This document shows positions 1 through 46,484 of a DNA stretch of 64,000 nt, in pieces. The translations under genes and the position numbers were made by a program. The stretch is taken from contig CM114271.1 in the NCBI GenBank assembly GCA_050084515.1, forward strand, positions 42,470,001-42,534,000, in the 5' to 3' direction. Numbering within the stretch: the first letter of the stretch is position 1; each line of letters starts with the position of its first letter. The notes beneath the pieces are model-generated. The model saw only the letters and a program-made list of their open reading frames with translations, did no database searches and had not been told where the DNA came from. This DNA comes from Blasia pusilla. Its lineage: Eukaryota.

Positions 1-2882
1 GCGGGGCAACAAATGAAGGCAATGGTCTTTGCAAAAGTGTCCCTCTAGGACCTGACTGAGGTCGTGTGTACCCCCACGACTCCCACTACTACTACCACCA
101 CCACTACTAGGAGATTTTGAGGTGGACTGCTGAACACGAGAAGTAGTAGTTGTATCCCTACTGAATACGGATGTCACCACTCTCTCCTCCACCATGTCAA
201 GCTCAATCTTCTCAAATAGAGCAAACACATGGGTCAATGTGGGTGAATCATCACTCATAAGAGTAGCATCACGTACCCTACGGCGCAACTCTCTGTTCAA
301 GATCCCATACCAAAACTGGACTGTCTGAGCCTCAGTCACACCCTGGGTAACTGAAATCAAGCGTCGCATACGAGTTTATGCCTCATGAAGACTCTCACCA
401 ATCTTTCGCTCAAATTCGTGAAGACTCCTCTACTTCTCTGTCTTCACTCCCTGATAGTTCTTCTTCAACCTCTTGAAGAACTCTGCAACCGAGCTGAATG
501 ATGGTGGGGCAATAGTACCTCCACTAGTACCCCCACTGGTACCTCCATGGGTACCTCCACTCGTACCCCCACTACGGCTCGTACTCGTACCACTCAACGT
601 CGGGCTGGCTGGCATAGTAAAAGCACTACTACCAATACCACAAAGGTGATAGACATATAGCCTGGAGACCAATATTGTCTCCACGCCTCAATCTCAGCAA
701 CATGGTCCTTCCTGAACTCATGTTAATCATCCATGGGTGGTCCGTCCAAGTGCTGAAACAACCCCTTCCAAACCAAGAAAGGTGTAAACAACGTGGCGTT
801 CCGCAACATCTGCATATCACACCACGTATCAAACTCAATCGTGCCCAGTGCACTCGAGTATCAACCTCCTCGATCAATCCATACTTTTGGTATCTACACC
901 CATCAAGTGCCAAACTCACCGTCATTATAGAGCGGCTGGCTGGCTTCGCAAATCAGAATGGAATGGATTACTGGCGGACGCAAAATGATTCATAACATGC
1001 CGTATTTCCATGCCGATATTCAAACGTCGAAAGACATAATTTCCTGCCGCGTCATGAACATCTAGCGAAGTTTCGGACTTGTATCGGACCCTAGAAATTT
1101 ATTGACGTTTCGAATCTGAATCACTCCGCCAGAGATGTTTCTTGACTGGAACAAGATCCACCTCAATTCGTGTAGTGGGAGGAATGCATATGGTGGTGGC
1201 GGTGGCGGTGGCCTTGCGTTTCACGAGTGCAACCTAAACTCGATCCGTTTCTGTTGTCCTTGCAACCAAGCATAGATGCAATCCAGACTTATGGATTGTA
1301 TCTGTCTAGAATACCAACCTTGATTCGATAACAATAATTGTCCTCAGCTGCTTCCATGCATGCATAGCTGGAGTCCAGACTCGATAGAAGCAACTTTTTC
1401 GTAATCAATACTCGCGATCAGCCAGGAGGAAACCTACAGCAAGGTCGATCGACGGCAGCAGCGGAGTGGAAAGAGGAATGTGAAACAGTTGGGAATGAGC
1501 CTACATTGCTGAAACTGGAAGTGTATGGCTCCTGGACTCGATCGACTCGTGTTCTTAGCTTACTTTCGTGCACGAATGGCTGGGATCCAGACTCGGTGGA
1601 TGCCCGCTCTGTCTAGTGGAGACTCTCATTCCAACCTGACGAACCATTCCACCGCAAGTTCGATCGAGTGAGCTGCTCCACAGACGGTTTTTCAATTGGA
1701 CGGAATCCAGGCTTCGTAGACGCCCACTCAGTCTACCGTAGGTCTGGCGGGCACTCTCGTTCCGACCCATGCACCGTTCCCACAGCGATGTCGGTCGTGT
1801 GAATGTCTGGGCTGCACTGGCGGCACTGCAAAGCAGCTGCAGCGTTTGCACTCTACATACAAGTGCCACGGACACCTAGTGCATGCCCAATTCCGAGCAC
1901 TCGCTACTCTCGTTTCCCACAGACTGTCCTCGAATCCTCCCTCGCTGGCTGCCCGCCATGAACCGCGTGCAAATATCCGATTCAGCAGTTTGGCATTCGC
2001 GGGCCTGCATTCTACTTACAAACGCCACGGCGCTTCACGGCGCCACGGCCAAGGTTTCGGCGCTAGATATTACTCTACCATTGGTAGTACATCCAAATGC
2101 ACCCTTCAAGTGAGTTTGCTGGGATGTCGATATTACACTTTGTGGATGCCAACTTTTCAGGAGTCGACACCGTAGTTCCCACTAAGTCTACCGCTGCATC
2201 CGCATGTGGATGTCAACTCACCTCTATAAACATTAGGTGCTTTATTCGTGCCATCAATTCTTGTGGCCAAAGTGGAACTTGAGTAAGTGGTGTTGTATCA
2301 GTGAAGGTTACCTACCTTCCACACAAATTTCCTCTTTTAACTTTGGACGTCCGGTTATATCCACTCGGCTTATATCCATTGAACGTGATTGTGTGATCAG
2401 ATAAGGCACCTTTGGCAGGTAGTCAGAGAATTGGCAGTAAATACGCAAGCGAAACTCCGAGGATTTACACTCCCAGATCGAGATCTAGAAGTGACTTACT
2501 GTAGTTACTGAATTTCTGAGAAGAGCTAGAGGTGTGAATAGGGAGGTTGTTGCTATAAAACACGTTGAAGTTGTAGGTGGGTAAATCTTGTGTGAAGAGT
2601 TGGTGTCATCCAAGTACTCTCAATTAACTTTATCCCCGCATGTTATTGTACTTTCACTACTACTTCCTATTAGAAAGAGAAAGATGGGAGGGAATAGAAG
2701 TGTGTGGAAATCACAAACTTATGTGCTCAATTGTCTAGCACCATTCCCAAGAATTAGTTTTCTTTGTGTGTGTGGTGGTGAGTTCACTCATTTTGATCTT
2801 CCTTCTATGAAACGATCAATCAAGAGTCATTATCTCAATTGATCTTCTGATGTTTGTCTTCCAAATCCTCAGGTAGTCGTCA
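1..2882 (-). mobile_element. Ty3/gypsy LTR retrotransposon 5' part (degenerate gag plus probable leader/LTR), truncated by the window edge; same gag lineage as the DNMT-bearing element at 25.6-33.8 kb
   Basis: Minus-strand translation across stops and frameshifts gives EFDTWCDMQMLRNATLFTPFLVWKGLFQHLDGPPMDD and VTQGVTEAQTVQFWYGILNRELRRRVRDATLM. These align by eye with QFRSWCDSQRARNSREFNPFRAWNGMFEHLEGAPMDD and WYVMLERTLRTRVREGMLLM in the gag at 31.6-32.2 kb. Right boundary is approximate. Confidence 0.7.
513..596 (-). repeat. 12-bp tandem repeat encoding (SGGT)n inside the gypsy gag
   Basis: Repeated gtacc(t/c)ccact units; ORF 430..684 reads SGGTSGGTHGGTSGGTSGGT. Confidence 0.8.
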
Positions 2883-2967: not shown

Positions 2968-3259
2968 TGCTAAAGAAGCATAACTGATGGGAACACTCAC
3001 ACACCACCATGGAGAATAAAATTTGCAATGAGAGAATGAGTGGAGACTCATCCCCTTCTCAATTATATAGGATATGTACAAGCAACCCTAACCCTAACCT
3101 TAACCATAGTCTTGAGTTAGACTAATTGTGATTAACTAAACCTAGTTAAGATAATCGTGCTTTACTGACTAACCAAGATTAAGCTTCCCTACTTCGTGTG
3201 AGTACCAAATGTAGCAGTTCAGGTGTCTCATGAGGTTGACTGTAACTCAATCTTCAATA
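2968..3259 (-). repeat. 3' LTR of the copia element
   Basis: Directly follows the PPT (TGAGGGGGAG); matches 7849-7972 and, in inverted orientation, 34021-34250. Confidence 0.85.
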
Positions 3260-7848: not shown

Positions 7849-7972
7849 TATGGAAAACTGCTAAAGAAGGATAAGCGGTGGGAAACGGCTCTCACACTCA
7901 CACACCACCATGGAGAACGAAATTTGCAATGAGAGAATGAGTGGAGGCTCGTCCCCTTCTCAATTATATAGG
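7849..7972 (-). repeat. Truncated 5' LTR of the copia element
   Basis: Adjacent to the PBS; matches the 3' LTR over ~80-120 bp, then similarity stops abruptly near 7972. Confidence 0.8.
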
Positions 7973-22000: not shown

Positions 22001-23319
22001 TGGAGAATCATGACTTTAATGCTTCTACATTCTCTGAAGAAAGAGGTTTTCATCTCTTACATGATTTTGGATCCCCTGGTGGATACTTGAAACGATTGCA
22101 ATATGAGATTAGGGGTAGAAAGTTCCATAGCATTGAAATGTTGAGAGATCGTACGGGAAAGGATTTACATGCTGCTCTAACTTTCCAGAAGAACTTTGCT
22201 GAGAATGTATGTGTACCCTTACATGATAGATTTAGGGACAATAGTTTGATAAGTGCAATGAAAATTATGAATCCTCTTCATATGCCCTCAAGGTTAGTAG
22301 GATTGAATAGTTGGGGTTGCAAGGAAGTGGATGATCTTTGCGCACAATTTGGAAGGGAAACGCCTTTGAGGGTTCACTTGCAACCACTTCTTATGAATTC
22401 AGCAAGTGTGAAGTCAGAGTTTCAATCATTTAAGCTCATGGCCACCACAGAATGGAAAGATATAAACTTTCGAGATTTTTGGGCAATAGTTAGTTGGAGC
22501 CCAACCAATCGATTGACGACTAAGAATTTAGATGTTGTTCTCAAGATAGCTTTAGAGGGTAAGATACTTGATTATGAGGATTTGTTGGTAGAATCAGTAA
22601 TCCTTTGAAAAAATTCTGCTAACTTTAGATATGTGTATTCTAATCCAGAGAGATATGTGAATGGTAAGGATGATACTCCAATAGAGGTTGCAAATATAGA
22701 GGATTCTCCAAGTACACCAATTTCAAATGTTTAGTCGGTGGGAAGAGAGAGATATGAGAGGTCCCTTTTATAATACATTAAAGATTTGTTCTAAATCTTC
22801 AATGTATTATGAAGGGGTAGGATCCGTGGCTCCCGGTTGGGTGGAGTCCTCGCTAGGTTCAATTCTGCCAAGGATGTTAAATGTGGGTTATAGCAAGGGA
22901 GGAAAGAGTTTAGGGACCCAAGGAGATGGAACTGGGAATTAGAAGAATTTAACATGGAGTGAACTGCGTTTCTTACTTATGTTTATAATGCAGAAATTCA
23001 TTGAATTGAATTTCTGCTTCCTTATTTCATTTTTTTGAGCAAGAAATAGCAAAGGTGAAAATGTACACTGGGAAGAAAAAAAAAGCCGGTTGAAATTCTG
23101 GCGGCCGGAAATTTTCGGGGTTGTCTGAAAAGTTTGTGAAATCTACCGGGGAAATTTTTAAAAAATCGGATAATCACTGGAAAATAAATAAAATCTCATA
23201 AATTTTCCGCCTAAAAAAGTCGTAGCCTTTTTTTGCCGACTATCTTTTCCCAAAAACCGTTGTACTTAAAAGCTTACTGGCAACCAGCGGGTTTCCGCCA
23301 AAAAGCTCCCTGGACCTTG
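19008..23319 (+). mobile_element. hAT-superfamily DNA transposon with both termini
   Basis: Perfect 8-bp TSD ATCCTACT at 19000-19007 and 23320-23327; imperfect TIRs CAACGTCCGGAGAG / CTCCCTGGACCTTG; CCGG-rich subterminal regions; internal transposase. Confidence 0.92.
20599..22734 (+). pseudogene. hAT transposase (ZNF862/DUF4371-like with N-terminal TTF-type zinc finger), inactivated
   Basis: Single frame from ATG 20599: FDWIEF...IFCKVC...H..S..H zinc finger, FGIMIDESTDIS, FGSDGASTMVG, SVHCVAHRTNL, IRWLSR. In-frame stops at ~20767, 21340 and 22606; the segment that normally carries the CERGFS motif is missing. Confidence 0.88.
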
Positions 23320-24075
23320 ATCCTACTCTCTCAAGTTACATGAGGCCTCAACAAGTCATCTTCGATCTTTTGAGGTTGTCCTCCAAACTTCTCAAAGGTG
23401 CACTGAGAATACTCACAATCCATCCTAAAAGATGTATCTTCTCCCTAAGAAGCCTTGGATAATAACCTTTGACCATTCTCTCAATGTTTCTCTCTTAAGA
23501 CAAAGTAGAATAGTTAATCCCTTGATATGCCTTCCGAATAGTTTCTTAGCTCCCAATATCCAATATATATGGTCATACAAAAATGTGGTTAACTCATAAT
23601 TCCAAGACTCAAGTGGGTGCCCATCTTGACGTATGTCATTTAGGATCACATGGTTGGTCTTTTCATCCTTTGCGTTTTGCAACTAGTCTCATGGGGTTGT
23701 TTCCCATCCCAGTGTTGAAATCGAAATTTTACTTCTCTCAGATCTCACTTTTAACATTTTCAAAGCATAGAAAGAGAGTAGATCTCTACAAGATCTTCCA
23801 CTGAACCATGTACATGAGGGTAATCACTTACAAACCTGAAAGAGCAAATCTAAAATAGATTGCATGCAGAACTAGTCCAAAACTTCTTTTGAGAATTGGG
23901 TGCTTGGAAAAGCAACACCTTATTGTAATATACAAGACTTGAAGAGAGGTGGTTGAAATCAAGATACATGAGTATGTGGGAGATAGGTTCTTGGAGCATT
24001 CTCCACACCACTACATTCCTTCTTAGTTAATCAAGCCACAAACAGGGGTTCAAATATGTAGGAGCTAATCTTAAG

Positions 24076-24079
<4 letters not shown>

Positions 24080-24158
<79 letters not shown>
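24080..24158. repeat. (AG)n microsatellite
   Basis: About 39 AG units. Confidence 0.98.
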
Positions 24159-24163
<5 letters not shown>

Positions 24164-25599
24164 CTAGAAGGTGTTAGCTGAAGGGAAGGTGCAAGGACCA
24201 ACATTTTTTATAGGAGGAGACCAACACATCAGGCCAATGCACCATACATAAGCCAACACACTATGGGCAAGGCAAGACATTAGGCCAACAGACCAAGAAC
24301 ATGCCAACACATCATGGCTAATACACACGCAACATACCAATACAATAGAGGCATGCCAACACATCATGAGCACAATCAACATAATCAAAACTAACAAGAA
24401 TGGTTAAGAAATAACAAGTAATCTAAATAAAGTGAGAGACTTACAACCATGGTGAACTTCCTACCATAGTTTGTAGAACTAACCATAGTTAAAACTTGTC
24501 GTGCGAATAAATATCGCTGCCAACTTACTTCAACTATCATGAGCACAAGTCTAAACAAGATCCATCTAACTATGAATCCTAACATATTTACATTTAAATG
24601 ATTGGAAAAACCCAATATAAAGTTGATATGAACTTTAAACTCTAGTGAAATCTGTCATGAACCATGCTTCATCCAAACATCCATATCAATGATATAAATT
24701 GTTGCAACAGTAGGAGAAAGTATGCAAATAACTCTAAATGCGTGTGATCTTCGATCAATCCTAGCTTATTCTTCAAAAGAGAATCCAAGCTCAATATTTG
24801 CAGGTTGCAATGTATCAAGGATCCCAACATGGGTTTGATCCTAGGGAAGATGAGCTTTGAATGAGCTTCATCCGAGGTATGCCTCCTAGGAACCTCCATG
24901 GGTGACATGTACACATAGGTAACCTCCCTCCTAGAAGGTCACTAATGACATGTAATACAAAAGGTACTAACTCCCTAACAACTGCACATGTGATCTTCTC
25001 TTGAGACCAACTACCAACTTATCCTTGACCATATGGCTCCATATATGTATAGGAGGGTCAACCTCTCCAAGGTTACCACTCTTCATAAAGGAAAGGATGA
25101 CCTACTCTCCTAGGTCGTCTCCTAAGAGCAAGTCACACATGACCTCTCAAAATAGGGAAATACAAGACCCTTCTAGGGCCTCGATACTATCTCACCCTAC
25201 GCCTCATCTATCATGACAAATTAAATAAAAAAATTAAGGAAAGGTTTAGAATAGCAAAAATTTTATATGAAATCCTAACGTCCAACTACTCTTAACTCTT
25301 GTGTTTCTTGCCTTTACGTAGGAACTTCACTCAAAGATCCTCCACTTAGCGTTGGCCCCTATCTCCTAAAACTAGACTCGGCTTTGGTGTGTTTCACCAA
25401 AGTTGATTCTCCTTGGATCTCCCAGTATAACTCATATTTTGGGCCCCCGCTAGCATGAGTGCCATAGCCATCTATCCCTACCTACCATGACATACATCTC
25501 TCGGATGCTAAGAGCAAAAAGGCCGGGTGCTCATCGCCCCATCATTAGTCGCCTTCTTATCATCCATGTCACATACACAAGTTGGAATCTAGAACTACC

Positions 25600-25760
25600 T
25601 AATCTATGTACATCTGGGGCACATCCATCGTTCTCGAGGAACCCTAGTGAGAGATGGCGTTTAACATGCCATATGCCATCCTCTCGAACATCCATCATAA
25701 ACTAGCATAGTGGCTGCACCATAGGCGGAACCACTCAACATACATCGCAAACCTACAGAA
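25600..25760 (-). other. Degenerate PHD finger at the C-terminus of the gypsy integrase
   Basis: RCMLSGSAYGAATMLVYDGCSRGWHMAC, then after a frameshift PSLTRVPRERWMCPRC; fits the C4HC3 spacing of PHD fingers with two Cys lost. Confidence 0.75.
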
Positions 25761-28659
25761 ACTACTGCTAAGCTCGGATCAATTGTACCGTCAATGTTAG
25801 GAAGATGACATGGCGCACAATTACGCACATAGTCCTTCCAAACCATATCATTGCATCCCTCCAATAAGAAAGCACCATATGGTAAAACCTCATGCACTCT
25901 CAAGATAGTGCACCCTGGAGTCACATTCAACGTCATGGGTGCCGTCTACTGCAAGTAGACATAATCTTCCTAATGAAACCTCATGATAATAGGTCGATAA
26001 CCACCTCCCCGAATAGTTGCATACCTCAACGTATCCCGATGCTACGCAATGGCCAAGTTCTCAAACGCCATGGGCATGACTCTCCGAAATGACTCAACCC
26101 TCTAAGAACATGCTCGCATCCATACATCAGGGTCATTAAGGTTCAACACCTCACCAACATCTCGACAAATGGTCGTAGGTAAATCTGGCTCTCGGCCATA
26201 AAGCAATAAGTACGGTGAGAAATACGCTAAGGATGTCTACTTGCTGAATCTGTATCCCATCGCCAGCCACGACAATAGAAGGTCCCAATCTCCTAGGTTA
26301 CCTCTTTGCAAGCCATACTTGCGCAATCCTCTCTTCACCGTCTGCACAACCCTCTCCGCTAGTCCATCTCGCAAAGTGGTGTGGTGGTTGATCAACGCCT
26401 TATCACACAAGGATTGAAACTCCCAACGAAACTATGTACCTTAGTCTGTCAACACTTCAGCTGGTATGCCATAATGACTCAACACTCAATCTTGGAAGGC
26501 ATACGCTACTCCCTCACTATCCACTTCGAGAAATGCTCGAGCATCACCAACACATAACGACTATGATGCTCCGTCAAAGATAAAGGTCCAGCAAAATCCA
26601 AACTCCATCTATAACCTAAACCAAAGATCAAAAGTGGATGCAACTATGGAGTCGGAGCATTGAACAAGGCCTAGACCCGATCACAAACCATACACATGGC
26701 AATAAATTTGTGAATGTCAGTTTGCATGCCTCGCCACCAATATTGTATCTAGAGCAAGCTATACGACCACTTCACTCCAAAATGACCCAACTCCTCGTGA
26801 GCATGACATACCAAACGTGCTCTCTGCAAAGGATGAGGTAGTAAATACACTCTATCATCCTCCCAAACTTGCAAGAGATGTGTCCCCTCCCACCGAAACC
26901 GTCTAGCTCGCTATAGGATCTGATCTCGCTCTCTAGCACTCACTATGCTCGCAACGCTGCCAATACGCAAGTACTCCAAGACTACTCCATCGTCGTGAAT
27001 ATCTCCGCCACCAATCGTCACCGGCCTTTGGATCTAAGGACTCTCCATCAGACCTCACCATTGAAGTCTCAGCAATCTGGCTCTCCATAGCCAACAAGCC
27101 GAAATAGGCTAACGTGTGCCATCCTGGCACCAACTTCTCATCACTCTCTCCATGCCATCAAGATGTAGTCGCATCTCGCCGACTCGGGCATGGGTTACGC
27201 CTCAAACCATCTGCATCCTGGTTGAGCATCCCAACTCTATGCACCACTGGAAATCATACTCCTACAACAACAAAGCCCACCTTGCAAGCTTCCCTGCAAG
27301 CTTTTTGGAATCCATCAACCACTTAAGTGGTTGGTGATTAGTAATAATGTTAAAGGATTGCCGAAAAGATAACAATGAAATGTGCAACAGCCTACACTGC
27401 AACCAAGCACTCATTCTCATACGAGCTATATTTTGCCATTACAACGTTATTTGAGCGACTAGCCACCACGAACTCTTTACCATCATCGTCATGCTGGATG
27501 AGCACGGCTCTAAGCTCCAACATACTCCAATCAATATGCAACTGGAAAGGACACCCCGTGATTGGTCTCCTTAGTATGGGCGGGGACATCAATCTATCCT
27601 TGGATAGCTGAAATACTCTCTCCTGCTCATCCCCCCAGTGCCACTCGTGATCCACCTTGGTCAGCAAGGTCAGCGGCTTTGCAATCGAACTGAAACCCTT
27701 GACTTACCGTCAATAGAAGTTTGCCAATCCCATGAATGCATGAACTCGACTCATATTTGTAGGGCGTGGAATGCGTGAAATAGTCTCTACCTTTGTCTAT
27801 TGCACACCAAGGCCACCTAGGACCTGGGTATATCGTATGACCCAGGTACTCAATCTTGTCATAGAAGAACTTGCACTTGCTTGGATGTAGCTTCAGCCCA
27901 TGGAACTGCAATCGTCGAAACGCCTCCTCTAGATATCGCTCATGCTCCTCAATTGTGGCGCTAAAGACTACAATGGCATCAATTTAACACCTAGCAAAAT
28001 CCACATCCATGCTTGCCATGCACATCCTTCTTGGCAAGCATGGATGCATATTCTCCATGCGACATCTCCACTAGTTCTGCTCCAACCAATCCTGGCTCCT
28101 ACTCTGAATCAGAGCCCTCTCCATATCACTGTACCTACAGGGTCGTCAAAAGATCGACATTTTGCTCGACAAATCAATGCGGATCCTTGGACCCTTTAGC
28201 AACCCAAATCATGCATGCTAAATGCAAAACAACTCTAATAACTCCTAAGGAATTGATGTATCCGGCGCTACTCTCCTCCTATTAACTTAGGGCCCATATT
28301 TGGCTCCCAAGTCTCCATCGTGACTACGGTAGGACTCTTCGGCGCACGTGTTGGTGGTTGCTATGGTGCAATCCCGAATCTAACAGTAAAACTTGGCTGC
28401 TCCCCTATAGCCACTTGCAAACTCTGATCTCCTCCATGTACAGTACTTGGAACCATGCTCAATTTTGTGGCTATCATCTCCTGGAAAACCTGCAAAACAT
28501 CCCAAGAAGTCCAAAGGTGTCTCTCCTGATCATTCCTGGTGTGTCGATCTCCTCGCGTCTTGCCCCCAACCACTACCTCAATCATCTTGGTAGGCATGGG
28601 GCTCACCAACGCAACAATTGTAATCTGTCGCAACCTCAAACGACGTTGCTCAGCTACTC

Positions 28660-29625
28660 TGAAGTTGTAAATCCATGTCAAGCAGTTCAGGTCCATTTCC
28701 TGACCCAAGACATGATGTCGTAATGCCTCTGAAAGTGACGATACTTCCGTCACTTCTGTGGGGAATTCCATTGCTCGCTCTCGCTCATCGGCGTTGGGCT
28801 CCACCAACCGTTGTACTTGATCATCCCAAACCAAGCCGGGCCCAACCTCCTTGAATGCATAGGAAGCGTGAAAACTCACAAATGTGGGAAAGGCTGCTCG
28901 TGGCATGCCAATCTTGTTAACCACAATCAACGGCGGTCGATCATTGTGCCTCACCATCTGTGATCGACAATCTGGATCTAGAATAGAATCCACCAACAAA
29001 TGAGAGGGGCGCTCCACTCTTGTATACGCCCTCCGCAAAACCTCATGTGGCACCAAGTTGGTCCACCAAAGACACATGCAATGTACTCGTGAACCTACAC
29101 TCTCCGCATCCAACAACATTTTCGGGCTAATCCATGCGCACACCTGATGTGCACTCGTCACCACTCGAATCCTCGAATCGCCCAAAATTGACACATTCTC
29201 TAGAATGTTTGTTGGAGAACGGGACTGATGCTCATGCAGGTGTTGCAAGATCTGCATCATCTCCCAAAACAACATGGACCGAGAGTCAGCTAACACGCTA
29301 CCTTGGCCTTCACTCGATTGGCCTTGACACGACCAACCACCAATGACCAAATTTGTGGTCCCTACCTGCTCCAAGTCATGCGCCCCCAACAATGAAATGT
29401 CCCTCGGTACGGAACGCTAGGATCCCTAGATGGCACACATATACAACAAGTCGGGAAATCGGAGGCGTAACTGCGCCATATGGTGAAGTGAAGCACGGCT
29501 CGCAACATCATCAATCTCAACATATAGGTACTGTTGCACGCGCACTCCGCCTGCAAAACAACAACTAACCCAGTGTTGATCCCTCCAAAGAGATCCAACA
29601 CGCGAATACCCTCCTCTAGGATGCA
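28660..29625 (-). pseudogene. C5 cytosine DNA methyltransferase domain (DNMT3-like) inside the gypsy pol
   Basis: Motifs in canonical order: I IRVLDLFGGINTG; II YLYVEID; III RDI; IV LVIGGWSCQG (GGxPCQ); V SRSMLFWE; VI ILENV; VIII LLDA...SRVHCMCLWWTNL (cf. DNMT3 IDA..SAAHRARYFWGNL); IX ERERAMEFPTEVT (cf. EMERVFGFP..T); X RHHVLGQEM (cf. RQRLLGRSW). One frameshift and two stops near the N-terminus. Confidence 0.9.
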
Positions 29626-32600
29626 CCACACAATCGGGGTGGTGTCCTAAGGGGTCATAGTAGCACTCTTGGCTACCTCGGGTTCCTTTGACCCGTCACG
29701 CTCTGGTGCAAACGCCTCACTCCACGCCGTCTGCATGTGCTCATCAACTAAACGTCAGAGCTCTTTACTCCAGCCCCATAGTGCCACCTCTCCTCCACGG
29801 ATGATGCGGCTACCATAACACTCCTCTCCCTAGAAGTGTGAGGCGCAGGGTTGTCCTTTGCATGGACATGCCCCTCAATCAAATCATAAGGCCACATGAT
29901 GGCACTACTAAATGCTGCTTAAGTTGCCATCTCTCCTCGCCGTCCCTCAATCACTCCATCCGTGAATCGCACAGGTAATGAACAAAGTCGTCCATCACCG
30001 GACTACCATCCTGGTCCGTAGGACGCTGACTCCTCCCAATAATCCAAAGAAAACCCCATCGGGTGCAACACTGCTCCCCCAACCAAGACGTCGTAGGACT
30101 CTACATCGGTCACGATCACCTTGGCTCGCACCACATACTCATGTGTAGGATGTCTGTATCCTGAAGGGACAACGCTCCACATCGGCTCTCGTCAAGCCCA
30201 ATCCTCTAAATGTCGCTTTCCCCAACATCAAGGGTTGTGCTCCCAAATCCAACAAGACACGTTGCGGACTAAAAAATCTACCTCCTCGAGTCATCAATTG
30301 GAAGACCTTTCCCCGATTGTCCAGCAACACAACACGAGGAGAAGCCATGGCAAGCTCTATCGTAGGTCTAGCGGGCATCTCCGCCATCCTTGCAGCCACA
30401 ACCTGCCATGAATCTGAGGTGGACAGCCCGAGCATCGGCTCCAAGGGCAGATCCATCACCTCCTTTGCAATCACCTCTGAATATGATGCATGAACACCAT
30501 CTCCACACTCATATAGCGTAGCGGCCGACCGGAAAACCTCGGCAGGCATACCTCCCAACGTCATAACATCGGAAGCAGAAAACAAAGGAGCACGGTACAC
30601 CATCGTGGCCGCCCCCAACATCATGCTTGACACATGCTCCTCCCAAACATTAACAATAGGATTCGTTGCACTCGCTTCTCCCATCGCCCTCTGTGCTGCA
30701 CACCAACACCATCAAGTCTCCGAGAACTCTGATCATGACACATCGATGGGTTCCTCATCACCTCGAACAACGCGAAAGACTGAGGAAGCATGATATGTTT
30801 CTTGGCTTCCCCTCTTTGTGGATCCAACTCGACGGCAGCTCCATGTGTAACAACAATGGTTGCCTCCAAGTGAATAGTCACACACATCCAGCCAGGATCC
30901 TCCATATCTTCGGCTGCTCCATACGACGTCGATGCCACGGATTTGGCATCGGATAACCTCAATGCCATAGTGGAAATCTACTCTTATAATTTTTGTATCC
31001 GAGGAGCCATCCTAGCCTCACACCCGATATCTCCCTCGACGCGTCTAGGTGGTGGAACTCTACCTCCTCCATGGGCAACTCCACCAACCCCTCGGGCAAC
31101 TCCAGCTCCTCGTCCCCCAACGAGACCACCTGGTGCACAACCTCTAGGCCCACTCGGACCGACAACTCGTTCTTGTGCCCTCTCGGGCCCTCGGTCTGGA
31201 CGTAACTCAAGGTGTAGGCTGAAACACTTGGCGCGTGTGTGACCGTACCTCTGACAATAGTCACACTGATAATCCCCTGGTGCAGCACCATCTTCTTCTC
31301 CATGTTGAGGCACACATCCATGACCCTGATGATTGCAATCGCGTTGGTGATGGGCTCCACCACATGCCCAACAAATAATCATAGGCAGATGTTGTTGAGC
31401 CATATATGAAGGCACAAGTCTCGATGGCACAGCCTCCCGATATGCTCCTTGCGCTCGTGGTGCCACAGACCTATCTTGGAATCCACGTTGCTGCATTGGT
31501 GGTGCGAGCAATCGTGATTGCTCTCGCCTAGAACTCATGGTGGCTACGCTCTCCTCTGCCATGTTGCGCTCAATGATCATGGCGGTCCTAAAAACATTTC
31601 TGAACGTGGCTGTGGTGTTCATAAGAAGCATCCCCTCCCGCACCCGTGTGCGCAGAGTTCGCTCTAGCATCACGTACCATGACTAGATAGCGTGGGACTC
31701 GGTCACCCCTTGAGTGACATTAATCAACCGGTGCAAGCAAGTGTAGGCCTTAGGAAAACTCTCAATCGGGTGCCTCTGGGAGTTGTGGATGCTCCGCAAC
31801 TTCTCCGTCCGAACCCCTGGTAGCTCGTCCTCACCTCCGCAAAGAGCTCAACCACAGGGTTGAACTTGGGACAAACCTGACTAAACGATGCAACTGCTCT
31901 AGTGCAAGTTGGCCCTCCTAAAACATCACTAGTGGAAGAGGAAGAAGCCTCTTCTGACTCCTCCTCCTCATTGGGAAACAGTTTAGTCCGTGACCTATAA
32001 TATGGATCATAGTAGAGTCGCCATGCCTCAATCTCCTGGGCATATATGTGGGAGAACTCAAGGTAATCGTCCATGGGCGCCCCCTCTAAATGCTCGAACA
32101 TACCGTTCCATGCTCTAAATGGGTTGAACTCTCTGGAGTTCCTAGCTCGTTGTGAGTCACACCAACTCCTAAACTGTGCAATAAAGTTGTGCAACTCTAT
32201 CGTGCCTATAGCACGCGAAAACCTATGCGGTCCTCTATCCCGGTTTTCCATCTTGTATGCCCAACTTGTAGGACCACTAATGTGTGCGGTGAATCACTAA
32301 CACACTCCTCTACACGCTCCCCCTCTTATGAAGACGACACAAAAGGAGTCAAGGTGGTACCTCACGTGGAGACCCTTGAAACCTCGCGCCACTCCGCGTA
32401 AATCCTCTAGAGCTACCCTAAGGTCCACCACCTCGCCTCTCAAAGTCCCGAAAGGACTTTGAGAGGCAAGGTGGACCTGCGGCACGAGGGTCATCACGGC
32501 GTGATGACCCTCATGCCCCTCTCACACGATCACTCTCAATCTTGCGAGTAGTCACTAAATCACTCAAACTAACATGCGACACTCAATCTACACTCTCTCA

Positions 32601-33814
32601 TAGAGACTTGTGCTGTGCGGCAACAAGCGACATGGTGCGGCAAATCGACTGATCTATCATCTCATGGACAAAACATATCCTCAACTCTGGATATCCCACA
32701 CAGGTCTATGTCCCCTAAACCCACACATCAATGATGCTCTCTATATCTGCACGAAACCCAATATCCCCAAATAACTGCCAAATACCCAAAATTCCCTAAC
32801 AAGTGCAGGGAAAAAGACCAGAATGGGTAACCTGAAAAAATGTCAATCGCTCCTCAGTAACTGAAACCTCAACCCCAACTCGGTCATGAAGAAAAACTCC
32901 TCCAATCAGCAAGTATTACTCCCCTAGTACTGACGATGCTCAAATTTCCTCAATGTGCGGTGCGGGTCCAACAGTACGGTGTGGTACTGGCGGCACAGAA
33001 CGACACATCACTCAAGAATGGGGTGCAGCACTCAGCGGCATATCCTCCTTTGTAAAAAAAACAATCTGATGTCCATTGATGGAATGGCTCTACGATCGAG
33101 ACGGTGCGGTGCGGTGCGGCCACAAGCGGCACCGCGTGACAATCGACGGCGCGTTGCGGCTACGGGCATCACAGCACGGTACTCGATCATCGGCAAGCGG
33201 CTGCCAATCACTATACATAGCGGAGCAAACAAGGAACCCACGACGCCATCAATCAAAATGTCACCTCAAACATCACGGCCGAGTTGGGGTCGAGAGAGAG
33301 CTTGAGAGCTCATTCTCTCTATGTAAATCAATGACATCTCTCTCAACATCTCACACCAAGCTCTCCATGGTGTGCACTCTCTCTTATGTCAAACCAAACC
33401 CACTCTCCTAATAAGAGGCTTGGGTTACACACACAAGGCAAGGAAGACCATAGCTCCGCCGCCTCATGCCAAGAAGTTCAACAAGGAGAGAATGAGCTCT
33501 CAAGCTCTCTCTCTTGGAGGTATATCCCCTTCCCTATCCCAAGCTCTCTCCTCGGTAACCTATGTTCCTAGGTCATCTCCTTGGATCTTGACATGCTGTA
33601 GCAGGTCAAGGGCAAGTTCCCAAAGTAGAAAGTCAACTTACTCGAAATAGTAAGTTTCTCTATATGGCTCCAAATGAGCCGAAACGAAGGTGGAACCTGC
33701 TCTCTCATGTTACTCGTGGCCTCAGCAGGTCATCCTCAATCCCCTGAGGTTGTCCTCTAATATCTCCGAAGGCGTTTTACTAGATCTTGTCAATCTATCC
33801 TAAAAGACGTAACA

Positions 33815-34260
33815 TTGTGTTTCATGCTTGAACATAATATGTTGAGGTGCACTATCCTTTTATCATAGGAGAAAGTGCTTGCAGGAGAAATTGATCTCGT
33901 GTATTTACCCACTCATCAGTCAATTTCTAATTTCTTTACAAAGGCATTTTCTAGAGATAAGTTTGAGATGTGTAGAAACAATTTAGGTGTTAGAGACATC
34001 AATTTGAGTTTGAGGGGGAGTATTGAAGACTAAGTTATAGTCAAACTCATTGGACACTCGAACTGCTACATTTGGTACTCCCATAAAGTAGGAAAGCTTA
34101 ATCTTGGTTAGTCCGTTAAGTGGGACTATTTTAACTAGGGTTAGTTAATCATAATTAGTCTAACTTAAGACTATGGTTATGGTTGCTTATACATACCCTA
34201 TATATTTGAGAAGGAGACCAGCCTCCATTCATTCTCTCATTGCAAAATTTGTTAATGCAT
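33815..34260 (+). mobile_element. Copia fragment (RNase H end, PPT, 3' LTR), same family as 2968-7972
   Basis: Reverse-complement match to ~3020-3465; PPT TGAGGGGGAG ends at 34020 and the LTR starts TATTGAAGA at 34021. Abuts the gypsy LTR terminus. Confidence 0.88.
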
Positions 34261-35728
34261 ATTGATGCGTGAACTTAGAGATCTGCAGCAGTTTTGTTGT
34301 GGATTGGATTGTGGACCTTCTCCATTGCACACAAATATTTATCGCTAAAACTCCGATTGGCATTTCCTTCATGGGAAGAACAGAAAGCATACTTATTGAT
34401 GGCCGGTTCATCCTGTGCATGCTCTAGGTCTGTCATTGCGTATTGCAACCAGCGAACAAAAGAATGAGAGGGAGGGACTCCGAGTGAGTGAGTGAGATCC
34501 CCTCCCTTTCATTCTTTCGCCATCTAGTGTGAGTGAGAGAGGGATGGGTAACAACTCAGTTAGTTATGGTTACACAAAGCACACGTCATTGGGGGTCCAA
34601 AGTGTGTGTAGCATTTTGACGTCAATGAATGGGCGAGAGAGAGAGGAACAGAAGTACGTACGTCCGCTCTACCCCCACTCGACAACAACAAACGCGACAT
34701 CCTATGACTGTGTGAGTGTTACTAGAGTGTTACCCTCATTTCCCGTCTGTTCATGTATTGCGTACGAGTGAGGCAACTCAGGAAAGGAGGCTCAAAATTT
34801 GGAGGTACCTCTAATCTTACACCCTCATGCACAGGTACTGCCCCTCTTGGTTCGGATGTGCCTCTAGTCTCTCCCCGATCAACCCTTAATTTTCCTCCCA
34901 ATCAAGTTTAATTAAAACTCAAAACCAGGGCCGCATAGTGGTTAGAGGGGACAAGTGTCACAACATAAAGCCACCCAAAGAAAAGGTGTAATCTAATAAT
35001 AATCTATTAATTTAAATTACTTATTTTCGGGGCAAAAGAGAAACAGAAAGAAACACGAGAGAAAGTGCGAAAAGAGTTCCCACTCGAATGGCATCTTAGA
35101 TTCTTATCATCTCTATTCTGTCGCGCATTGAGCGCGTTCCCGATCTCTGCGATCGATCGAATCTTCGATCCAGCGAGCGCGTCAGTGCGGGCGGCGAATG
35201 CCATAGCCACTCTCCGTGGGCGGGGCGGGAATTCCCCGTTTCGGGGTGGCCGTGTAAGTTTACGGGGACATAGAGTGATTTCCGATCCGTGTCAAACTGC
35301 GGGAGCTTTTTGCTCCCTCGAGCGCTCTCTGCGGCCCAATCCTAGTGAGTTGCGTAAGTGCAATTTCGGGGGAGGGCTGGGAGTGCATTTCGTCGAAGGA
35401 GTTCGACATGTGCGACGCCAATTGTTGGGAGTGTGGGAGGAACGGGGCAATGGAATTGCGGAATTGATGTGACCGCGTACTGGTTAGGGAAGCAGGCAAG
35501 CAGCGCGGAATGATGGCGAGGAGGAATTGGGCATGAGTGAGCGTGTTGCCTGGCAGATCTTGGTTGGTTGGACGGGTTCCGTAGGGGGAGGGGGCAGGGG
35601 AGATGGTGTGATTGGAGGACGGAAGGGCTGCCCGATCAATCGCCGCATGGTGGTTGTGGAGCTGTAGAGTCGGAGCTCCTGTGCAGTGGGTACTTTGGCG
35701 CAGAGGAGGACCCCTGGAGACACTGGCA

Positions 35729-38700
35729 ATGGTGAGCGGCTCATCCTCTTGCCCGCTGCTTCCGGAACGCGCTTTGCTGCAGGGATCGCGCAAGTGGCTG
35801 CACTCGTCGCCGGTGCATGGCCCGAGCAGTTTCAGCCTCCCGGGTTTGGGAATTTGTCGACGCTACAGGCCCGTGACTTGTAGATTAAACGGGGAGGAAT
35901 TGGGCAGCGTGAAAGTGGGCAAAAAGTCGAAGCGGAAGGGTGTCGATGCTGCTGAGAGAAACCTGCACTCTTCTGAGATTGGTTTGGGCCCTTCCAATCG
36001 AGGTGTGTCCACCCAATCCGTAGCAGCTCCTGCTGAGGACATGGGGACCTTGAACGAGGATGAGATGGACGTGTCTGACGATGACGAGCTGAGGGCCTAC
36101 AGAGGTCTAGTTCTTGACGTGACTTACAGGTAGTCTCCACATATCAACGGGAGTCAGGCTTCAAGAGTGGACCAGGAGAAGCTGAAATGCATGCCCTGGA
36201 GCTTGATGAAATTGAACTCTGTTTCTGGAGTTGATGTCTGTCCGCACTTTTTGGTATTACTTGGAGAGAATCCCCATCAACACGTATAAGGAGGTTTTTT
36301 TTCTTCCTTATTAAGAAACCTGAGTGGTGTTGGTATGCACTCTTGGTGTTCCAGCATTTTCGAGACATGGAGCTGAGGGGCTTACACTGCTTTCTTTTTG
36401 TGTTGTTAGGCCTATCAACGTGGTGAACTGGAAGCGCGCGTTGTGTCTTGACATTCTTGAGAAGGTGGATGAATGCATTTTCTGCCTTGCTCTGTTTGTC
36501 GAAATACTTTGTGCCACTCACTACTCACGTGTTCCGTCAATTTTAGGATGACATGAAACTGTGCTCGTGTCATACAAACATCGTCCGTATTACAGAATCT
36601 AGCATAGTTTCGGTGGTTAGAGACTGTACTCCTTATAGGTTCTCACTTGGCTCCATTGCGGCTGCGCGTGGCCTACTTTTCATTGAGTCTTCTTAGTCCT
36701 CCTCTTGAATCTTCCTTTCAGGGTTTCTTCCCATCCCTTGGTTTACATCAGTGCTTTCCGCCTTTTCAGATTTTTTCCCTGACATATGAATGATCTCTTC
36801 TCTCGATCCACTCTTGTTTCATCTGTCTTTGGTATCCATGTGCTAGTTTGACTTTGTTGGAATGATTCTCAGCGGATTGTGCTCTGCATTTTGTTACAGG
36901 CTGACGTACTCGAGTACTACGATCAAGCTGTATACTCTCCAAACAGAGTATTCTTCATTCCAGCAGTTCTGAAAGTAAGCATGATTCATTTAAGTGTCTC
37001 TACCTGTGAAGTCATAAAGCACTACATAATAAATTTTGGCATTGATTGTACAGCTAATCAGGCTGGTTGATGTGCTCTTTTTGGGTATGATAGATTTATG
37101 TAATTCAGGGAATGATTTGAGGATCAATACACGTTTCATAAAGCAATATAAGAGTGCATGATATATAAGGTTCAGAAAAAAGACAAAACTGTCAGTCATC
37201 TACTGTAATATCCATCTATATAAAATTGTCCCCTCTGAAGCCTAAAATCACTAGGTTAGTTTAGTCTTCGAGCCTGCAATTCTAGTACTCAGAGTGGGAA
37301 GACGAAATCTTGTCAGTTGGAGAAGTGTGGCAAGCAGTTTTGCAATATGGATTGTGGTTATTCAGTTTTGTGCCCCACGGCTGACGCTCCTCATTTGTTG
37401 CTCAGGTGTGCAACTTTGTACATTCTCCCAAGCAAAAGATGGTGAGGCTTACCCTCAATCGAAACAACATCTTTCTAAGGGACAAGTTTAGATGCCAGTA
37501 AGTTTCTGCTATGTAGACATCTCTGTGACAAACGTGCTCAAACATGACATATCAAATCTTAGTTACGCACTTGCTTCATAGATGTTTTAGCATGACCCTC
37601 AAAAGAGATGAAGATTTCAATTAGGATTAATCTTGTCCCTTATTTTCTTGCTTTCCTGAGTTACAACTGAACCGCATATGCAGTTTTCAAAAAGTGTTCA
37701 GCTCAAAGAAATAATATGTGTGTCTTGTCTATCTATATATTGTTGCAGAGTGCCCCTTCAATTTTCAAACTCTTCTTCTTTTGACACCTGGCCTCAGCCA
37801 ATAAGATCGCTCGCTCTCTCTCCAAGCCAATAGGATTGCTCAAAATTGATTCAAGGGTGTTAAGTCCTTAAATCACATTTTTACCCGTGCATTGAACAAG
37901 CGTCCACCAGTGTGTGTGTGTATCGATTGCAACAAGACATTTGCTGACTTTGACTTCTGTCGAGCAGGTACTGCGGGGCCCGAGATAACCTCACCATTGA
38001 TCATGTCTATGCGGCTTCGAGAGGAGGTGGTTGGACGTGGGACAATCTCGTGAGCTCTCATTTCTGGTTGACTGCATGGATGTCTCAAAGTCCAGATTAT
38101 TTGTGTTTTGAGTGTCCGTTGAGATTCAAAATCATGTTGTTGGATTCTGATATGGAGCTCCTGCTGTGTTTGGAGCATCCTGGAGGCACAGAATATGTGA
38201 TCCATACTATATTCAGCCAGGAGCTTCGGCCTCTGGCAGATTATATAGTGTTAGTGCAGAGCTTTCACTCATACAGCAACCACCACTTTGCTATCAGCAA
38301 GGTAACCATGCTCGGATCGTCCTGGAGGTGCATAATATATGAGTCATTCTATACTCATCCTGCAGCTTAAGCCTATTGACAAGTTATATAGACTGTTAAT
38401 GCAGAGCTTTCATGCCTACAGCCACCAACTCTTTGCTTTCAGCAAGGTAGCCAACGAGAGACTGAAGCTAGTATACTAGCCCTTGACACAGTGCGAATGT
38501 GGAGAGTCCAGGTGTCTCAGCTCAAACTACCTTAACTGAGTTTCGATCCCAAGACACATTATGTACCAGGGCAGCAGTTTTAGCGTTTAGTTGAAGGTCT
38601 TTCAGAGAAATCAGGAAGATGAACTAGGTGGGAATGGAGATGGACAAGACCAAGTTTTTCTGTAGGGATCAAAGTGTAGGTTAAATTCTGGGCAAATCAA

Positions 38701-46400: not shown

Positions 46401-46484
46401 TAGCTCTCCGTCTCTCAGAGACTTCAGAGCCTCCTCCTCGAAAGACGCCGCGTCGTCATCTGAATACTCGTCTATCTCATCCAT
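43444..46484 (-). CDS. FDM: IDN2/FDM-family dsRNA-binding RdDM factor (zf-XS, XS, coiled-coil, XH), ~668 aa; exons 46484-45578, 45353-45166, 44977-44888, 44523-44185, 44079-43852, 43698-43444
   Basis: zf-XS LRCPFSP...YRDLLQHAEG...HSALAKFL; XS VCPWAGLIYN...GHTGLAVITF...FEKWF...GRRDW...LYGWLAR; XH IS VKKMGEID...W...DPNFSPFK...ALQEIESHNASGRYIVHLPWNF. All GT-AG and frame-consistent. The XH domain separates it from SGS3; the paralog cannot be assigned. Confidence 0.93.

Follow-up and report, generated by a model that had tools for sequence, protein, structure and literature searches.

The 64,000-nucleotide stretch of Blasia pusilla DNA analysed here (the window) raises the question of whether a Ty3/gypsy retrotransposon of a land plant encodes a cytosine-5 DNA methyltransferase (DNMT) of its own. 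The first-pass annotation, made from the sequence alone, had placed a Gypsy element at 25560-33814, with such a domain between its protease (PR) and reverse transcriptase (RT). The answer proposed here is that the feature is very probably a dead, 3'-truncated Ty3/gypsy copy, belonging to a family that encodes a DNMT3-like C5 methyltransferase between PR and RT, and a PHD finger behind the integrase (INT).

Layout and state of the window copy

On the minus strand, tblastn, Pfam and read depth together outline a Ty3/gypsy element at ~25,464-33,850 in the order gag-PR-DNMT-RT-RNaseH-INT-PHD (Table 1), which is the Ty3/gypsy pol order PR-RT-RNaseH-INT with gag upstream, the DNMT separating PR from RT. 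Family-level likeness in read depth runs from 25464 to ~33850, close to the span originally annotated, and tblastn with Marchantia proteins as queries bears out the position of the DNMT, with PR upstream (30630-30148) and RT downstream (28309-27825), all on the same strand.

Table 1. Features in the window assigned to the methyltransferase-bearing family
Feature	Position	Strand	Basis
5' terminal region, probable 5' LTR	33416..33850	-	DNA read-depth peak ~1620x vs 140-1070x in element interior
gag, with zinc-knuckle-like CX2CX4HX4C stretches	30741..32236	-	tblastn, Marchantia P0080 residues 9-488: 37-41% identity, two frames
Aspartic protease (retropepsin)	30148..30630	-	tblastn, P0080 residues 514-671: 44% identity
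DNMT3-like C5 cytosine methyltransferase domain	28496..29646	-	Pfam, homologue searches, tblastn, family alignment, profile comparison
Reverse transcriptase remnant, three frames, ~300 nt of related elements absent	27825..28316	-	tblastn and Pfam RVT_1
RNase H	27152..27814	-	Pfam RT_RNaseH_2 (2.7e-14), RT_RNaseH; tblastn
Integrase, H2C2 zinc domain and core	26400..27003	-	Pfam Integrase_H2C2 (8.5e-11); tblastn P0092-P0094, 33-39% identity
PHD finger, C-terminal end of pol	25610..25717	-	Pfam PHD E 8.4e-5, 23 bits (cut-off 24)
Short 3' untranslated tail up to truncation point	25464..25609	-	Genomic reads
Second element, gag, other subfamily of same family	5..860	-	tblastn, Marchantia P0080 (gag-PR-DNMT protein): 67-77% identity

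The 5' terminal region is read as an LTR by analogy, since the LTRs of related elements measure 307-342 bp and lie ~4.2 kb upstream of the DNMT; to the right of 33850 the read depth drops to ~115x and then to ~2x. A copia-LTR-like fragment begins at 34086. At the other end, 1712 genomic reads diverge from the window left of 25464, where depth falls from ~490x to ~34x. The sequence with which those reads continue beyond 25464 was absent from the window, and neither a 3' LTR nor an LTR pair for this copy was found within it.

The gag ORF at 30984-31682 gave a weak Pfam zinc-finger match. The protease ORF gave none; its active-site stretch reads LLDLGAQ, against LLDSGAQ in Marchantia relatives, and Pfam Asp_protease_2 is found at the equivalent position of P0136, an intact relative. 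The RVT_1 match covers only profile positions 153-205 of 205. The gap in RT lies between 28013 and 28001, corresponding to 11496 to 11807 of the related element L004, and 910 genomic reads diverge from the window sequence at 28003. A PHD finger after the integrase is found also in the related element L051 (33.3 bits) and in relatives of a second layout, clade A (28-46 bits). The second element listed in Table 1, whose pol extends past the left edge of the window, resembles the main copy at the DNA level only in two short parts of gag, one of 57 nt (75%) and one of 96 nt (69%).

Motif names in the DNMT domain were assigned by reading alignments. Motif I (VLDLFGGINTG) lies in the ORF 29362-29646, and past one frame change the frame 28361-29551, which has two in-frame stops, carries motifs II (YVEID), IV (GGWSCQG), VI (ILENV), VIII (SRVHCMCLWWTN), IX (ERERAMEF) and X (LGQEMD). 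The domain is interrupted by that frame change, near 29548, and by the two stops. Relative to the family alignment, PC in motif IV has become SC and both motif VIII arginines have become cysteine, changes that fall at near-invariant catalytic positions of the family; the catalytic cysteine is retained, as are motifs I and VI. With the stops written as X, the domain finds 76 proteins of near length at an E-value of 1e-3 or below; the closest match (5e-114) covers 89% of the query at 54% identity, a likeness far above chance. The C5 methyltransferase-like domain stands where it was first noted on this strand. The Pfam DNA_methylase model (PF00145), which the first-pass annotation had proposed as a check, gave a divided answer: the 351-aa window ORF scores 20.5 bits (E 3.6e-4), under the gathering score of 22, and family relatives score above it (Marchantia P0080 and P0083, 35 bits; P0136 and P0266, 46-48 bits). 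Overall, the window copy has at least 11 frame changes, has lost ~300 nt of RT and is without a 3' LTR; judged by its sequence it is dead and unable to make the enzyme.

The family in this genome and in other plants

Whole-genome reads of at least 88% likeness cover 25170-33849 at 140-1620x, against ~1-2x over 34284-36000. The depth over the element is thus 100-1,000 times that of the single-copy flank (~1.4x), the DNMT segment included (140-370x, similar to 225-393x over gag). Partly fitting reads make up 43,413 of the 51,283 behind the depth data, so copy numbers are rough, but the family is present in roughly hundreds of copies in this liverwort genome. That the host is a land plant, as had been supposed, is borne out by the neighbouring XS-domain gene, whose nearest relatives are in Riccia, Calypogeia and Marchantia. 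Stranded reads from three RNA runs cover the element at 1-86x, nearly all in one orientation, taken as sense by the usual library convention and not from a calibrated gene; their source could be a few copies, or read-through. Unlike the window copy, the family is not dead: it has many copies and is transcribed.

At 678 positions an A or T in the window faces G or C in the reads; the opposite holds at 242. The CpG observed/expected ratio is 0.70 in the element copy, 0.95 in the neighbouring host gene and 0.45 in a copia element in the window. C-to-T/G-to-A changes predominate in the decay of the copy, a bias that a methylated and silenced insertion would be expected to show; since the copia element reaches its low ratio without a DNMT, such a bias requires no element-encoded enzyme.

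Twenty longer homologues include 11 Marchantia gene models, and one of these, P0083, reads PR-DNMT-RT-RNaseH (PR by blastp, the rest by Pfam). P0136 (2188 aa) and P0266 (2327 aa) run gag-PR-DNMT-RT-RH-INT in a single open polyprotein, with the Pfam domains zf-CCHC, Asp_protease_2, DNA_methylase, RVT_1, RNase H, Integrase_H2C2 and rve. The PR-DNMT-RT layout is present also in proteins of Marchantia, Calypogeia, Sphagnum and Closterium. When 1.84 billion representatives were searched with a profile, 413 clusters matched at E <= 1e-30, and every classifiable one of the best 150 matches was a retroelement form; no Klebsormidium sequence appeared among the named matches of the homologue searches. 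In a tree of DNMT domains, the window copy falls in a 13-row clade (100% local support) with element domains from Marchantia and Calypogeia. The two layouts lie on opposite sides of one branch, with 99% local support each, so that one layout change is enough to account for them.

The metagenome elements L004, L040 and L051 are colinear with the window, including across the PR-DNMT-RT junctions; each has a pair of direct LTRs (307-342 bp) that lie ~8.7 kb apart and are 90.8-94.5% alike. Both LTRs of L004 and of L040 start TGTCATGACC, and hence with TG, and TTTTCA closes those of L040 and L051; for L004 the repeat as reported falls short of this end, the locus itself running no further than the 3' LTR. 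No matching flanks that might represent a target-site duplication were seen beside the printed LTR ends of L040 and L051. Extra repeats outside L051 resemble a host element in which it is nested. An uninterrupted DNMT domain occurs in only five of 63 metagenome loci, and most inspected copies are broken. The dN/dS ratio of the domain is ~0.8 between the closest copies, which points to neutral decay, 0.4-0.6 at dS 0.15-0.3, and 0.14-0.21 between subfamilies, the last resting on saturated dS values of 1.6-2.3; there are signs here of past purifying selection. The lineage is old, being common to Closterium, liverworts and Sphagnum.

Affinity and possible role of the domain

Compared with structures in the PDB, the family profile matches DNMT3A best (1.8e-17), followed by DNMT3B (6e-15) and DNMT3C (1.2e-14), and then by DRM (4e-8), HhaI (2.4e-5), DNMT2 (1.6e-4 to 3.5e-4) and DNMT1/ZMET2 (~0.3). 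The motifs follow one another as in DNMT3A: three stretches of the profile, positions 1-35, 67-183 and 273-302, align colinearly with chain residues 9-43, 58-171 and 236-265, whereas DRM aligns only over chain residues 233-350, which hold its C-terminal motifs I-VI. The order is non-permuted, unlike that of DRM. An AlphaFold model of a relative, P0003, rather than of the window copy (pLDDT 88.1), gave Foldseek matches of which those listed, ranks 1-49, were all DNMT3A/B/C (best 1.4e-18), with target TM scores of 0.78-0.85 against DNMT3 chains consisting of the catalytic domain only; identity to the human DNMT3 enzymes is only ~20-23%. The family alignment keeps LDLFGGI, AGWPCQG, ILENV, GSRAHRPR and ERERAMGF, and there is little or no variation at the Cys-Gln of motif IV, at ENV or at the arginine of motif VIII. 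The stretch from motif VIII to motif IX is longer in the family than in DNMT3A (~90 profile positions, 183-273, against ~65 residues, 171-236). Pfam found no PWWP or ADD domain in the window, P0080, P0083, P0136 or P0266. By profile and predicted fold, then, the closest solved relatives are DNMT3 enzymes, in keeping with the DNMT3-like, non-permuted domain originally suggested.

It is tempting to suggest that in intact copies the DNMT domain would accompany RT and integrase in the particle or pre-integration complex, and would there methylate fresh cDNA, or DNA of the insertion site, de novo, so that a new copy would arrive in the genome already bearing the mark used by the host itself; the PHD finger may read the state of the histone H3 tail and steer integration as chromodomains do in chromoviruses. 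We infer this joint mechanism for intact relatives only, as a tentative proposal slightly less likely than not to hold as it stands; the window copy itself performs none of its steps.

Several other readings bear on this proposal. That the DNMT stretch is a one-off, either a captured fragment of a host DNMT3 gene or a separate sequence with a DNMT that has inserted into an ordinary Gypsy element, might be suggested by the fact that in the window it is out of frame with the neighbouring domains, and by the poorly conserved PR linker, where 1126 reads diverge at 30147. This is extremely improbable, and was rejected, given the open polyproteins P0136 and P0266, the same order in Marchantia, Calypogeia, Sphagnum and Closterium proteins, the colinear metagenome elements, a DNMT depth close to that of gag, and the grouping of the window domain with liverwort element domains; the same polyproteins, gene models and depth uphold the earlier view that the DNMT is part of pol. 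A domain that is kept but does not methylate DNA, acting instead on element RNA in the manner of DNMT2 on tRNA, or serving as a non-catalytic DNA- or chromatin-binding module for targeting or particle assembly, is unlikely. Its longer motif VIII-IX region would fit such a role, as would the report (PMC5890265) that the DNMT domain of a Klebsormidium Gypsy element did not methylate DNA in yeast and its authors' suggestion of RNA methylation for a LINE-type DNMT, but the same source calls the yeast test inconclusive and describes human DNMT3B as likewise inactive in it. The near-invariant Cys-Gln, ENV and motif VIII arginine would not be needed by a mere binding module, and the nearest solved relatives in sequence and fold are DNA enzymes, DNMT2 being far weaker at ~1e-4.

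If the domain does methylate DNA, its benefit might lie in self-restraint, or in a gain to the host, rather than in stealth: the element would silence its own new copies, do less harm to the host, and so persist as a lineage. This option is offered in PMC5890265, and the age and spread of the lineage, together with the biased decay and lowered CpG ratio of the window copy, would agree with it. Hundreds of copies and continuing transcription are unlike strong restraint, and the copia element has an even lower CpG ratio without a DNMT, so self-restraint is judged unlikely. A wider claim, that liverworts and Sphagnum harbour an old, still transcribed Gypsy lineage encoding an active de novo DNMT3, shared with Zygnematophyceae (Closterium), undescribed in land plants, and with the DNMT placed differently in pol than in its chlorophyte sister lineage, must be considered doubtful. 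If it were true, an enzyme encoded by hundreds of element copies would contribute to the methylome of the host, or shape it. The advantage to a transposon of encoding a DNA methyltransferase could then be tested in a genetic model plant, since Marchantia polymorpha has members of the family.

Comparison with known systems

The presence of an intronless DNMT3-like domain in a Gypsy-type Pol ORF of a streptophyte host assigns the element, on sequence grounds, to the Gypsy-DNMT3 kind first described in the alga Klebsormidium (de Mendoza 2018, PMC5890265), where Dnmt3 lies in Pol and is under purifying selection. The first-pass annotation knew of no description of such elements among land-plant LTR elements. 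No literature text describing them there was found, but public databases already contain proteins of the family from Marchantia, Sphagnum and Calypogeia, and two recent papers use the phrase 'streptophytes (Gypsy-DNMT3)', so novelty is lower than was then supposed.

As far as the text of PMC5890265 allows comparison, KnitGypsy-Dnmt3 of Klebsormidium nitens shares the non-permuted, intronless domain in a Gypsy-type Pol of a streptophyte, conserved key catalytic residues, evidence of purifying selection, and copies silenced in the host. It differs in that the host here is a liverwort, in copy number (hundreds here, whereas K. nitens 'has fewer copies'), and in its DIRS-like terminal repeats (Fig. 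4c legend), as against the single direct LTR pair of L004, L040 and L051. The sister clade, clade A (RT-RNaseH-DNMT-INT-PHD), found in Haematococcus lacustris and many metagenome proteins, likewise combines a Gypsy-type RT, RNase H and integrase with a PHD finger that follows the integrase; its DNMT is homologous (30-40% identity) but lies between RNase H and integrase instead of between protease and RT. SymbioDIRS-Dnmt3 of Symbiodinium also has a DNMT3-type domain in a retrotransposon Pol and, according to the same source, provides the sole transposon DNMTs with demonstrated de novo CG methylation, in yeast; it has a DIRS backbone with tyrosine recombinase and a dinoflagellate host, and the authors judge its acquisition independent.

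Host DNMT3 enzymes of animals and early land plants, such as PpDNMT3 of Physcomitrium (Yaari et al. 2019, PMC6453930), resemble it in the catalytic domain, which is nearest to DNMT3A/B/C by profile and fold, and in its non-permuted order, whereas the element domain is without PWWP/ADD and introns, is embedded in a polyprotein, and combines a longer motif VIII-IX stretch with the low identity to human enzymes given above. Chromoviruses likewise fuse a chromatin-reader module, for which a role in targeting is cited in bioRxiv 10.64898/2026.05.21.726589, to the integrase C-terminus; here the reader is a PHD finger, which by analogy may play a similar part in targeting.

A decayed Gypsy element with a DNMT3-like domain in pol

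The main copy in the window is a Ty3/gypsy-type retroelement on the minus strand, at about 25.5-33.9 kb. Its parts, located by tblastn with related proteins and by a Pfam scan of a three-frame read in which stops were taken as X, are collected in the table together with neighbouring features. The first-pass annotation had proposed a DNMT3-like cytosine methyltransferase (DNMT) with non-permuted motifs, lying between protease (PR) and reverse transcriptase (RT) on the same strand and forming part of pol. The tblastn order places it exactly there, and the same order in P0136 and P0266, two open polyproteins from database searches that contain a zinc knuckle, aspartic protease, DNA_methylase (46-48 bits), RVT_1, RNase H and integrase, shows it to be part of pol. 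In the window, PF00145 matches a 351-aa ORF (28361-29416) with E 3.6e-4 and 20.5 bits, slightly below the cut-off of 22; motif I (VLDLFGGINTG) lies in ORF 29362-29646, and motifs II-X in another frame.

Features of the main copy and its surroundings in the window
Feature	Coordinates	Strand	Evidence
gag	32236-30741	minus	tblastn
Protease	30630-30148	minus	tblastn
Linker	to 29548	minus	tblastn
Methyltransferase	29569-28496	minus	tblastn; DNA_methylase PF00145, weak Pfam match in three-frame read
RT	28309-27825	minus	tblastn; Pfam RVT_1, C-terminal part only
RNase H	27814-27152	minus	tblastn; Pfam RT_RNaseH_2, 2.7e-14
Integrase	27003-26400	minus	tblastn; Pfam Integrase_H2C2, 8.5e-11
C-terminal part with PHD finger	to 25610	minus	tblastn and Pfam; PHD finger 8.4e-5, 23 bits against a cut-off of 24
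gag of second element, same family	5-860	minus
Copia-type element	about 2968-7975	minus	RVT_2 7.6e-72, rve, copia gag
Direct repeats flanking copia element	2968-3074 and 7859-7975		84% alike
Adjoining ORFs, 190 and 421 aa	20770-22608	plus	190-aa ORF: zf-C17orf113 zinc finger, 2.4e-9 (Pfam)
Transcribed flank	23434-24735		RNA reads at least 99% alike, orientation opposite to element reads
65-nt skip	23841-23907		all three RNA runs, also the DNA run
(GA)n run	24074-24160
Copia-related fragment, inverted, adjoining Gypsy 5' end	34086-34253
Transcribed flank	35586-36000		RNA reads at least 99% alike, orientation opposite to element reads
Host gene	45113-46500 (ORF 45384-46496)	minus	XS and zf-XS domains

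A search with 28361-29551, read with stops as X, matched 76 proteins at E <= 1e-3; the top match (5e-114) is 54% identical and covers 89% of the query. Among longer proteins, 20 homologues were found. A profile built from alignment A1 (the window and 13 homologues) and run against all PDB sequences ranked DNMT3A (1.8e-17), DNMT3B (6e-15) and DNMT3C (1.2e-14) first, followed by plant DRM (4e-8, only via its C-terminal permuted motifs I-VI), M.HhaI (2.4e-5), DNMT2 (1.6e-4 to 3.5e-4) and DNMT1/ZMET2 (about 0.3). The aligned segments run in the same order as in DNMT3A, so the motif order is non-permuted, as proposed. An AlphaFold model of P0003, a relative with an intact DNMT domain that is 57% identical to the window read, has a mean pLDDT of 88.1 and a pTM of 0.88; Foldseek searching of the PDB with this model gave DNMT3A/B/C at all ranks 1-49 among the matches listed, with a best match of 1.4e-18 and target TM of 0.78-0.85 against chains comprising the catalytic domain only. 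Look-up of P0003 in the ESM Atlas returned nothing beyond generic DNA_methylase clusters. Judged by profile ranking and by the fold ranking of a relative's predicted model, the window domain thus classes as DNMT3-like, in agreement with the earlier proposal.

The window copy itself is a fossil, of value for the family to which it points. Best tblastn matches, in a defect map guided by Marchantia proteins, reveal at least 11 frame changes along gag-pol, and the DNMT domain has one frame change and two stops. (P0266 was rejected as a guide for counting defects, being so divergent that its matches pass through wrong frames.) Motif IV reads GGWSCQG, against AGWPCQG in 13 of 13 relatives; motif VIII reads SRVHCMC, against SRAHR.R in 12 of 13; and the protease active-site stretch is DLG, against DSG in Marchantia relatives. 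The RT lacks about 300 nt found in related elements, window 28013 to 28001 standing opposite 11496 to 11807 of the metagenome locus L004. At 28089, 28201, 29548 and 29800, a one-base length difference separates the window from the reads of other copies (from 37% of reads, at 29548, to 75% at these four places), and since these differences coincide with the frame breaks, the latter are private or sub-lineage changes. The window has A/T where reads have G/C at 678 places, against 242 of the reverse, and the observed/expected CpG ratio is 0.70 in the element versus 0.95 in the neighbouring host gene; this bias and the low CpG would fit deamination of methylated cytosines following insertion. The ratio is 0.45 in the copia element of the window, although this has no DNMT.

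Repeat finders and sensitive blastn gave no LTR pair for the main copy, the sole repeat match being a direct one of 121 nt and 72.7% identity between 23319-23436 and 33693-33811. The left arm was rejected as the element's 3' LTR because read depth there is low (about 11-13x), whereas the right arm lies inside a peak of 1620x; the left arm appears to be an old remnant of a related LTR, and the right arm is probably within the 5' LTR of the main copy. A metagenome scan yielded 63 loci with related elements, among them L004, L040 and L051, which are plain LTR elements with direct repeats of 307-342 bp, 90.8-94.5% alike and about 8.7 kb apart. The repeat starts with TGTCATGACC at both LTRs of L004 and L040, and ends with TTTTCA in L040 and L051. 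L004 and L051 are colinear with the window from gag to the end of pol, and L040 from the gag/PR boundary, with 64-87% nucleotide identity. The geometry of these relatives predicts that the 5' LTR in the window begins near 33.8 kb, and it is there that read depth reaches its peak before collapsing. Left of 25464, 1712 genomic reads depart from the window sequence and depth falls from about 490x to about 34x. The 3' LTR is absent from the main copy, and the continuation of the reads beyond 25464 was not found in the window, where the 30-letter continuation of other copies is unmatched at up to 3 mismatches.

Abundance, transcription and neighbours in the Blasia genome

One whole-genome shotgun (WGS) run and three RNA runs from the same species were mapped to 23000-36000 with a minimum likeness of 88%. 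WGS depth is about 0.8-1.9x in the right flank at 34284-36000 (both orientations summed) and 140-1620x in the element bins at 25170-33849. The four DNMT bins, at 372, 343, 140 and 300x, resemble gag (225-393x) and are lower than RT/integrase (423-1069x). Of the mapped genomic reads, 94% fall below 95% likeness and hence derive from other copies. The genome holds hundreds of copies or fragments, a rough figure since most reads (43,413 of 51,283) fit only in part. Over the element, RNA first mates have a depth of 1-86x on the plus strand and 0-7x on the minus strand. This bias is reversed in the two expressed flanks, so the libraries are stranded, and by the usual library convention the element RNA would be sense.

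The neighbouring gag at the left edge of the window, whose pol lies beyond that edge, is 67-77% identical to P0080, a Marchantia gene model, while the main copy's gag is 37-41% identical to it. At the DNA level this gag and the main copy share only two short stretches (57 nt at 75% and 96 nt at 69%), so that at least two subfamilies are present in this genome. The XS/zf-XS host gene, 12 kb from the element, belongs to the IDN2/FDM ('factor of DNA methylation') type. Among named relatives the closest are those of Riccia fluitans (56%), Calypogeia fissa (47%) and Marchantia polymorpha (42%), against 28-36% for flowering plants, which places the genome among the liverworts, in a species other than these three. 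The nearness of the gene to a DNMT-bearing element is probably chance. The pair of adjoining plus-strand ORFs, the 421-aa member of which has no Pfam match, may be a DNA-transposon-derived gene.

Two layouts of a wider family

Named homologues include 11 Marchantia polymorpha gene models, among them P0080 (gag-PR-DNMT) and P0083 (PR-DNMT-RT-RNaseH), and others from Calypogeia fissa, Riccia sorocarpa and four Sphagnum species. The suggestion that such a system reaches land plants is thereby borne out, by an element abundant and transcribed in a liverwort and by relatives in Marchantia and Sphagnum. In a profile search of 1.84 billion representatives, E-value limits of 1e-3, 1e-10 and 1e-30 admitted 8178, 1772 and 413 proteins, respectively. 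None of the best 150 of the 8178 has an E-value above 5.3e-59, and there are many polyproteins of 1000-3456 aa among them. When 156 proteins were classed by blastp against domain segments, 85 had the DNMT either after RT/RNase H or immediately ahead of integrase (layout A, RT-RH-DNMT-INT-PHD), 20 had it behind gag/PR or before RT as in the window (layout B), and 51 showed only the DNMT. Cluster names for layout B include Closterium sp. NIES-54 and NIES-68, with NIES-53 a member of a layout-B cluster, and for layout A Haematococcus lacustris. One layout-A cluster at 90% identity (P0251 and P0298-P0306) has ten members, all of 2487 aa and on ten contigs, and looks like a recently active family. 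In the metagenome locus L055 (5883-12341), a layout-A pol, open over 1576 aa, stands beside a second open ORF of 2153 aa, which has no Pfam match at E <= 0.001.

An unrooted FastTree phylogeny of 145 DNMT domains excluded 26 rows with a DNMT match under 290 residues or containing X, including Closterium P0237. It splits into sides of 37 and 108 rows, each with 99% local support: the former comprises 16 layout-B, 8 unclassed and 13 fragmentary rows of unchecked layout, the latter 82 layout-A and 26 unclassed. The window falls in a 13-row clade with Marchantia and Calypogeia domains (support 100). On this tree a single change of layout would suffice. A PHD finger stands behind the integrase in both layouts (23 bits in the window, 33.3 in L051, 28-46 in layout A), although L004, P0136 and P0266 gave no PHD hit. 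We read this as a single backbone within which the DNMT probably moved. The alternative is that similar genes were captured twice.

The DNMT domain is uninterrupted in 5 of the 63 metagenome loci. Nei-Gojobori dN/dS, with stop codons skipped, was calculated for 12 of the 63, hand-picked as full-length single matches with 0-3 stops, and has a median of 0.49 over 66 pairs. Values are about 0.6-0.85 at dS about 0.06, 0.34-0.82 (mostly 0.4-0.6) at dS 0.10-0.31, and 0.14-0.21 against one distant subfamily, for which dS is saturated (1.6-2.3). Values of this kind are usual where neutral decay of dead copies overlies purifying selection along an active lineage, and they suggest such a history less strongly than a likelihood test would.

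Possible function and precedent

Cytosine methylation is the main means by which plants silence transposons, so that a transposon with its own de novo methyltransferase presents a paradox. In intact copies the DNMT domain would be made as part of Pol and could act either at the insertion site or on the cDNA, with integration perhaps guided by the PHD finger. That the enzyme methylates the element's own new DNA de novo is a tentative reading, which we place just short of probable.

To our knowledge, the alga Klebsormidium has provided the only plant-lineage example in print since 2018. DNMT-bearing Gypsy elements are as a kind already known, and are called a streptophyte feature in passages of PMC12344493 and bioRxiv 10.64898/2026.05.21.726589. 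Full-text searching yielded no DNMT retrotransposon from bryophytes or other land plants; nor is there a land-plant case in the passages checked of PMC12344493, bioRxiv 10.64898/2026.05.21.726589, PMC6453930, bioRxiv 10.1101/363937 and PMC11982613. Bryophyte copies may be present in the DNMT trees or tables of the supplements to PMC5890265 and PMC12344493, and the family's proteins, being publicly deposited, may well be familiar to specialists. No PHD-finger integrase in algal LTR elements was found in the literature. Possibly new are the land-plant hosts with high copy number, the two sister layouts of the DNMT in pol, and the PHD finger behind the integrase.

According to passages of de Mendoza et al. 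2018 (PMC5890265), the DNMT3 domains of SymbioDIRS elements produced CG methylation in yeast and the Klebsormidium Gypsy domain gave no signal there, a result that its authors regard as inconclusive; activity of the algal enzyme could not be demonstrated, and copy number in the alga was low. The Klebsormidium element is described as having a DIRS-like arrangement of repeats (PMC5890265, Fig. 4c legend), whereas L004, L040 and L051 do not show one. The Marchantia members bring in a transformable model plant for studying activity, PHD targeting and effects on the host methylome. With abundance and transcription in a liverwort, relatives in Marchantia, Sphagnum and Closterium, and a probable move of the DNMT within pol, the comparative set becomes much wider.
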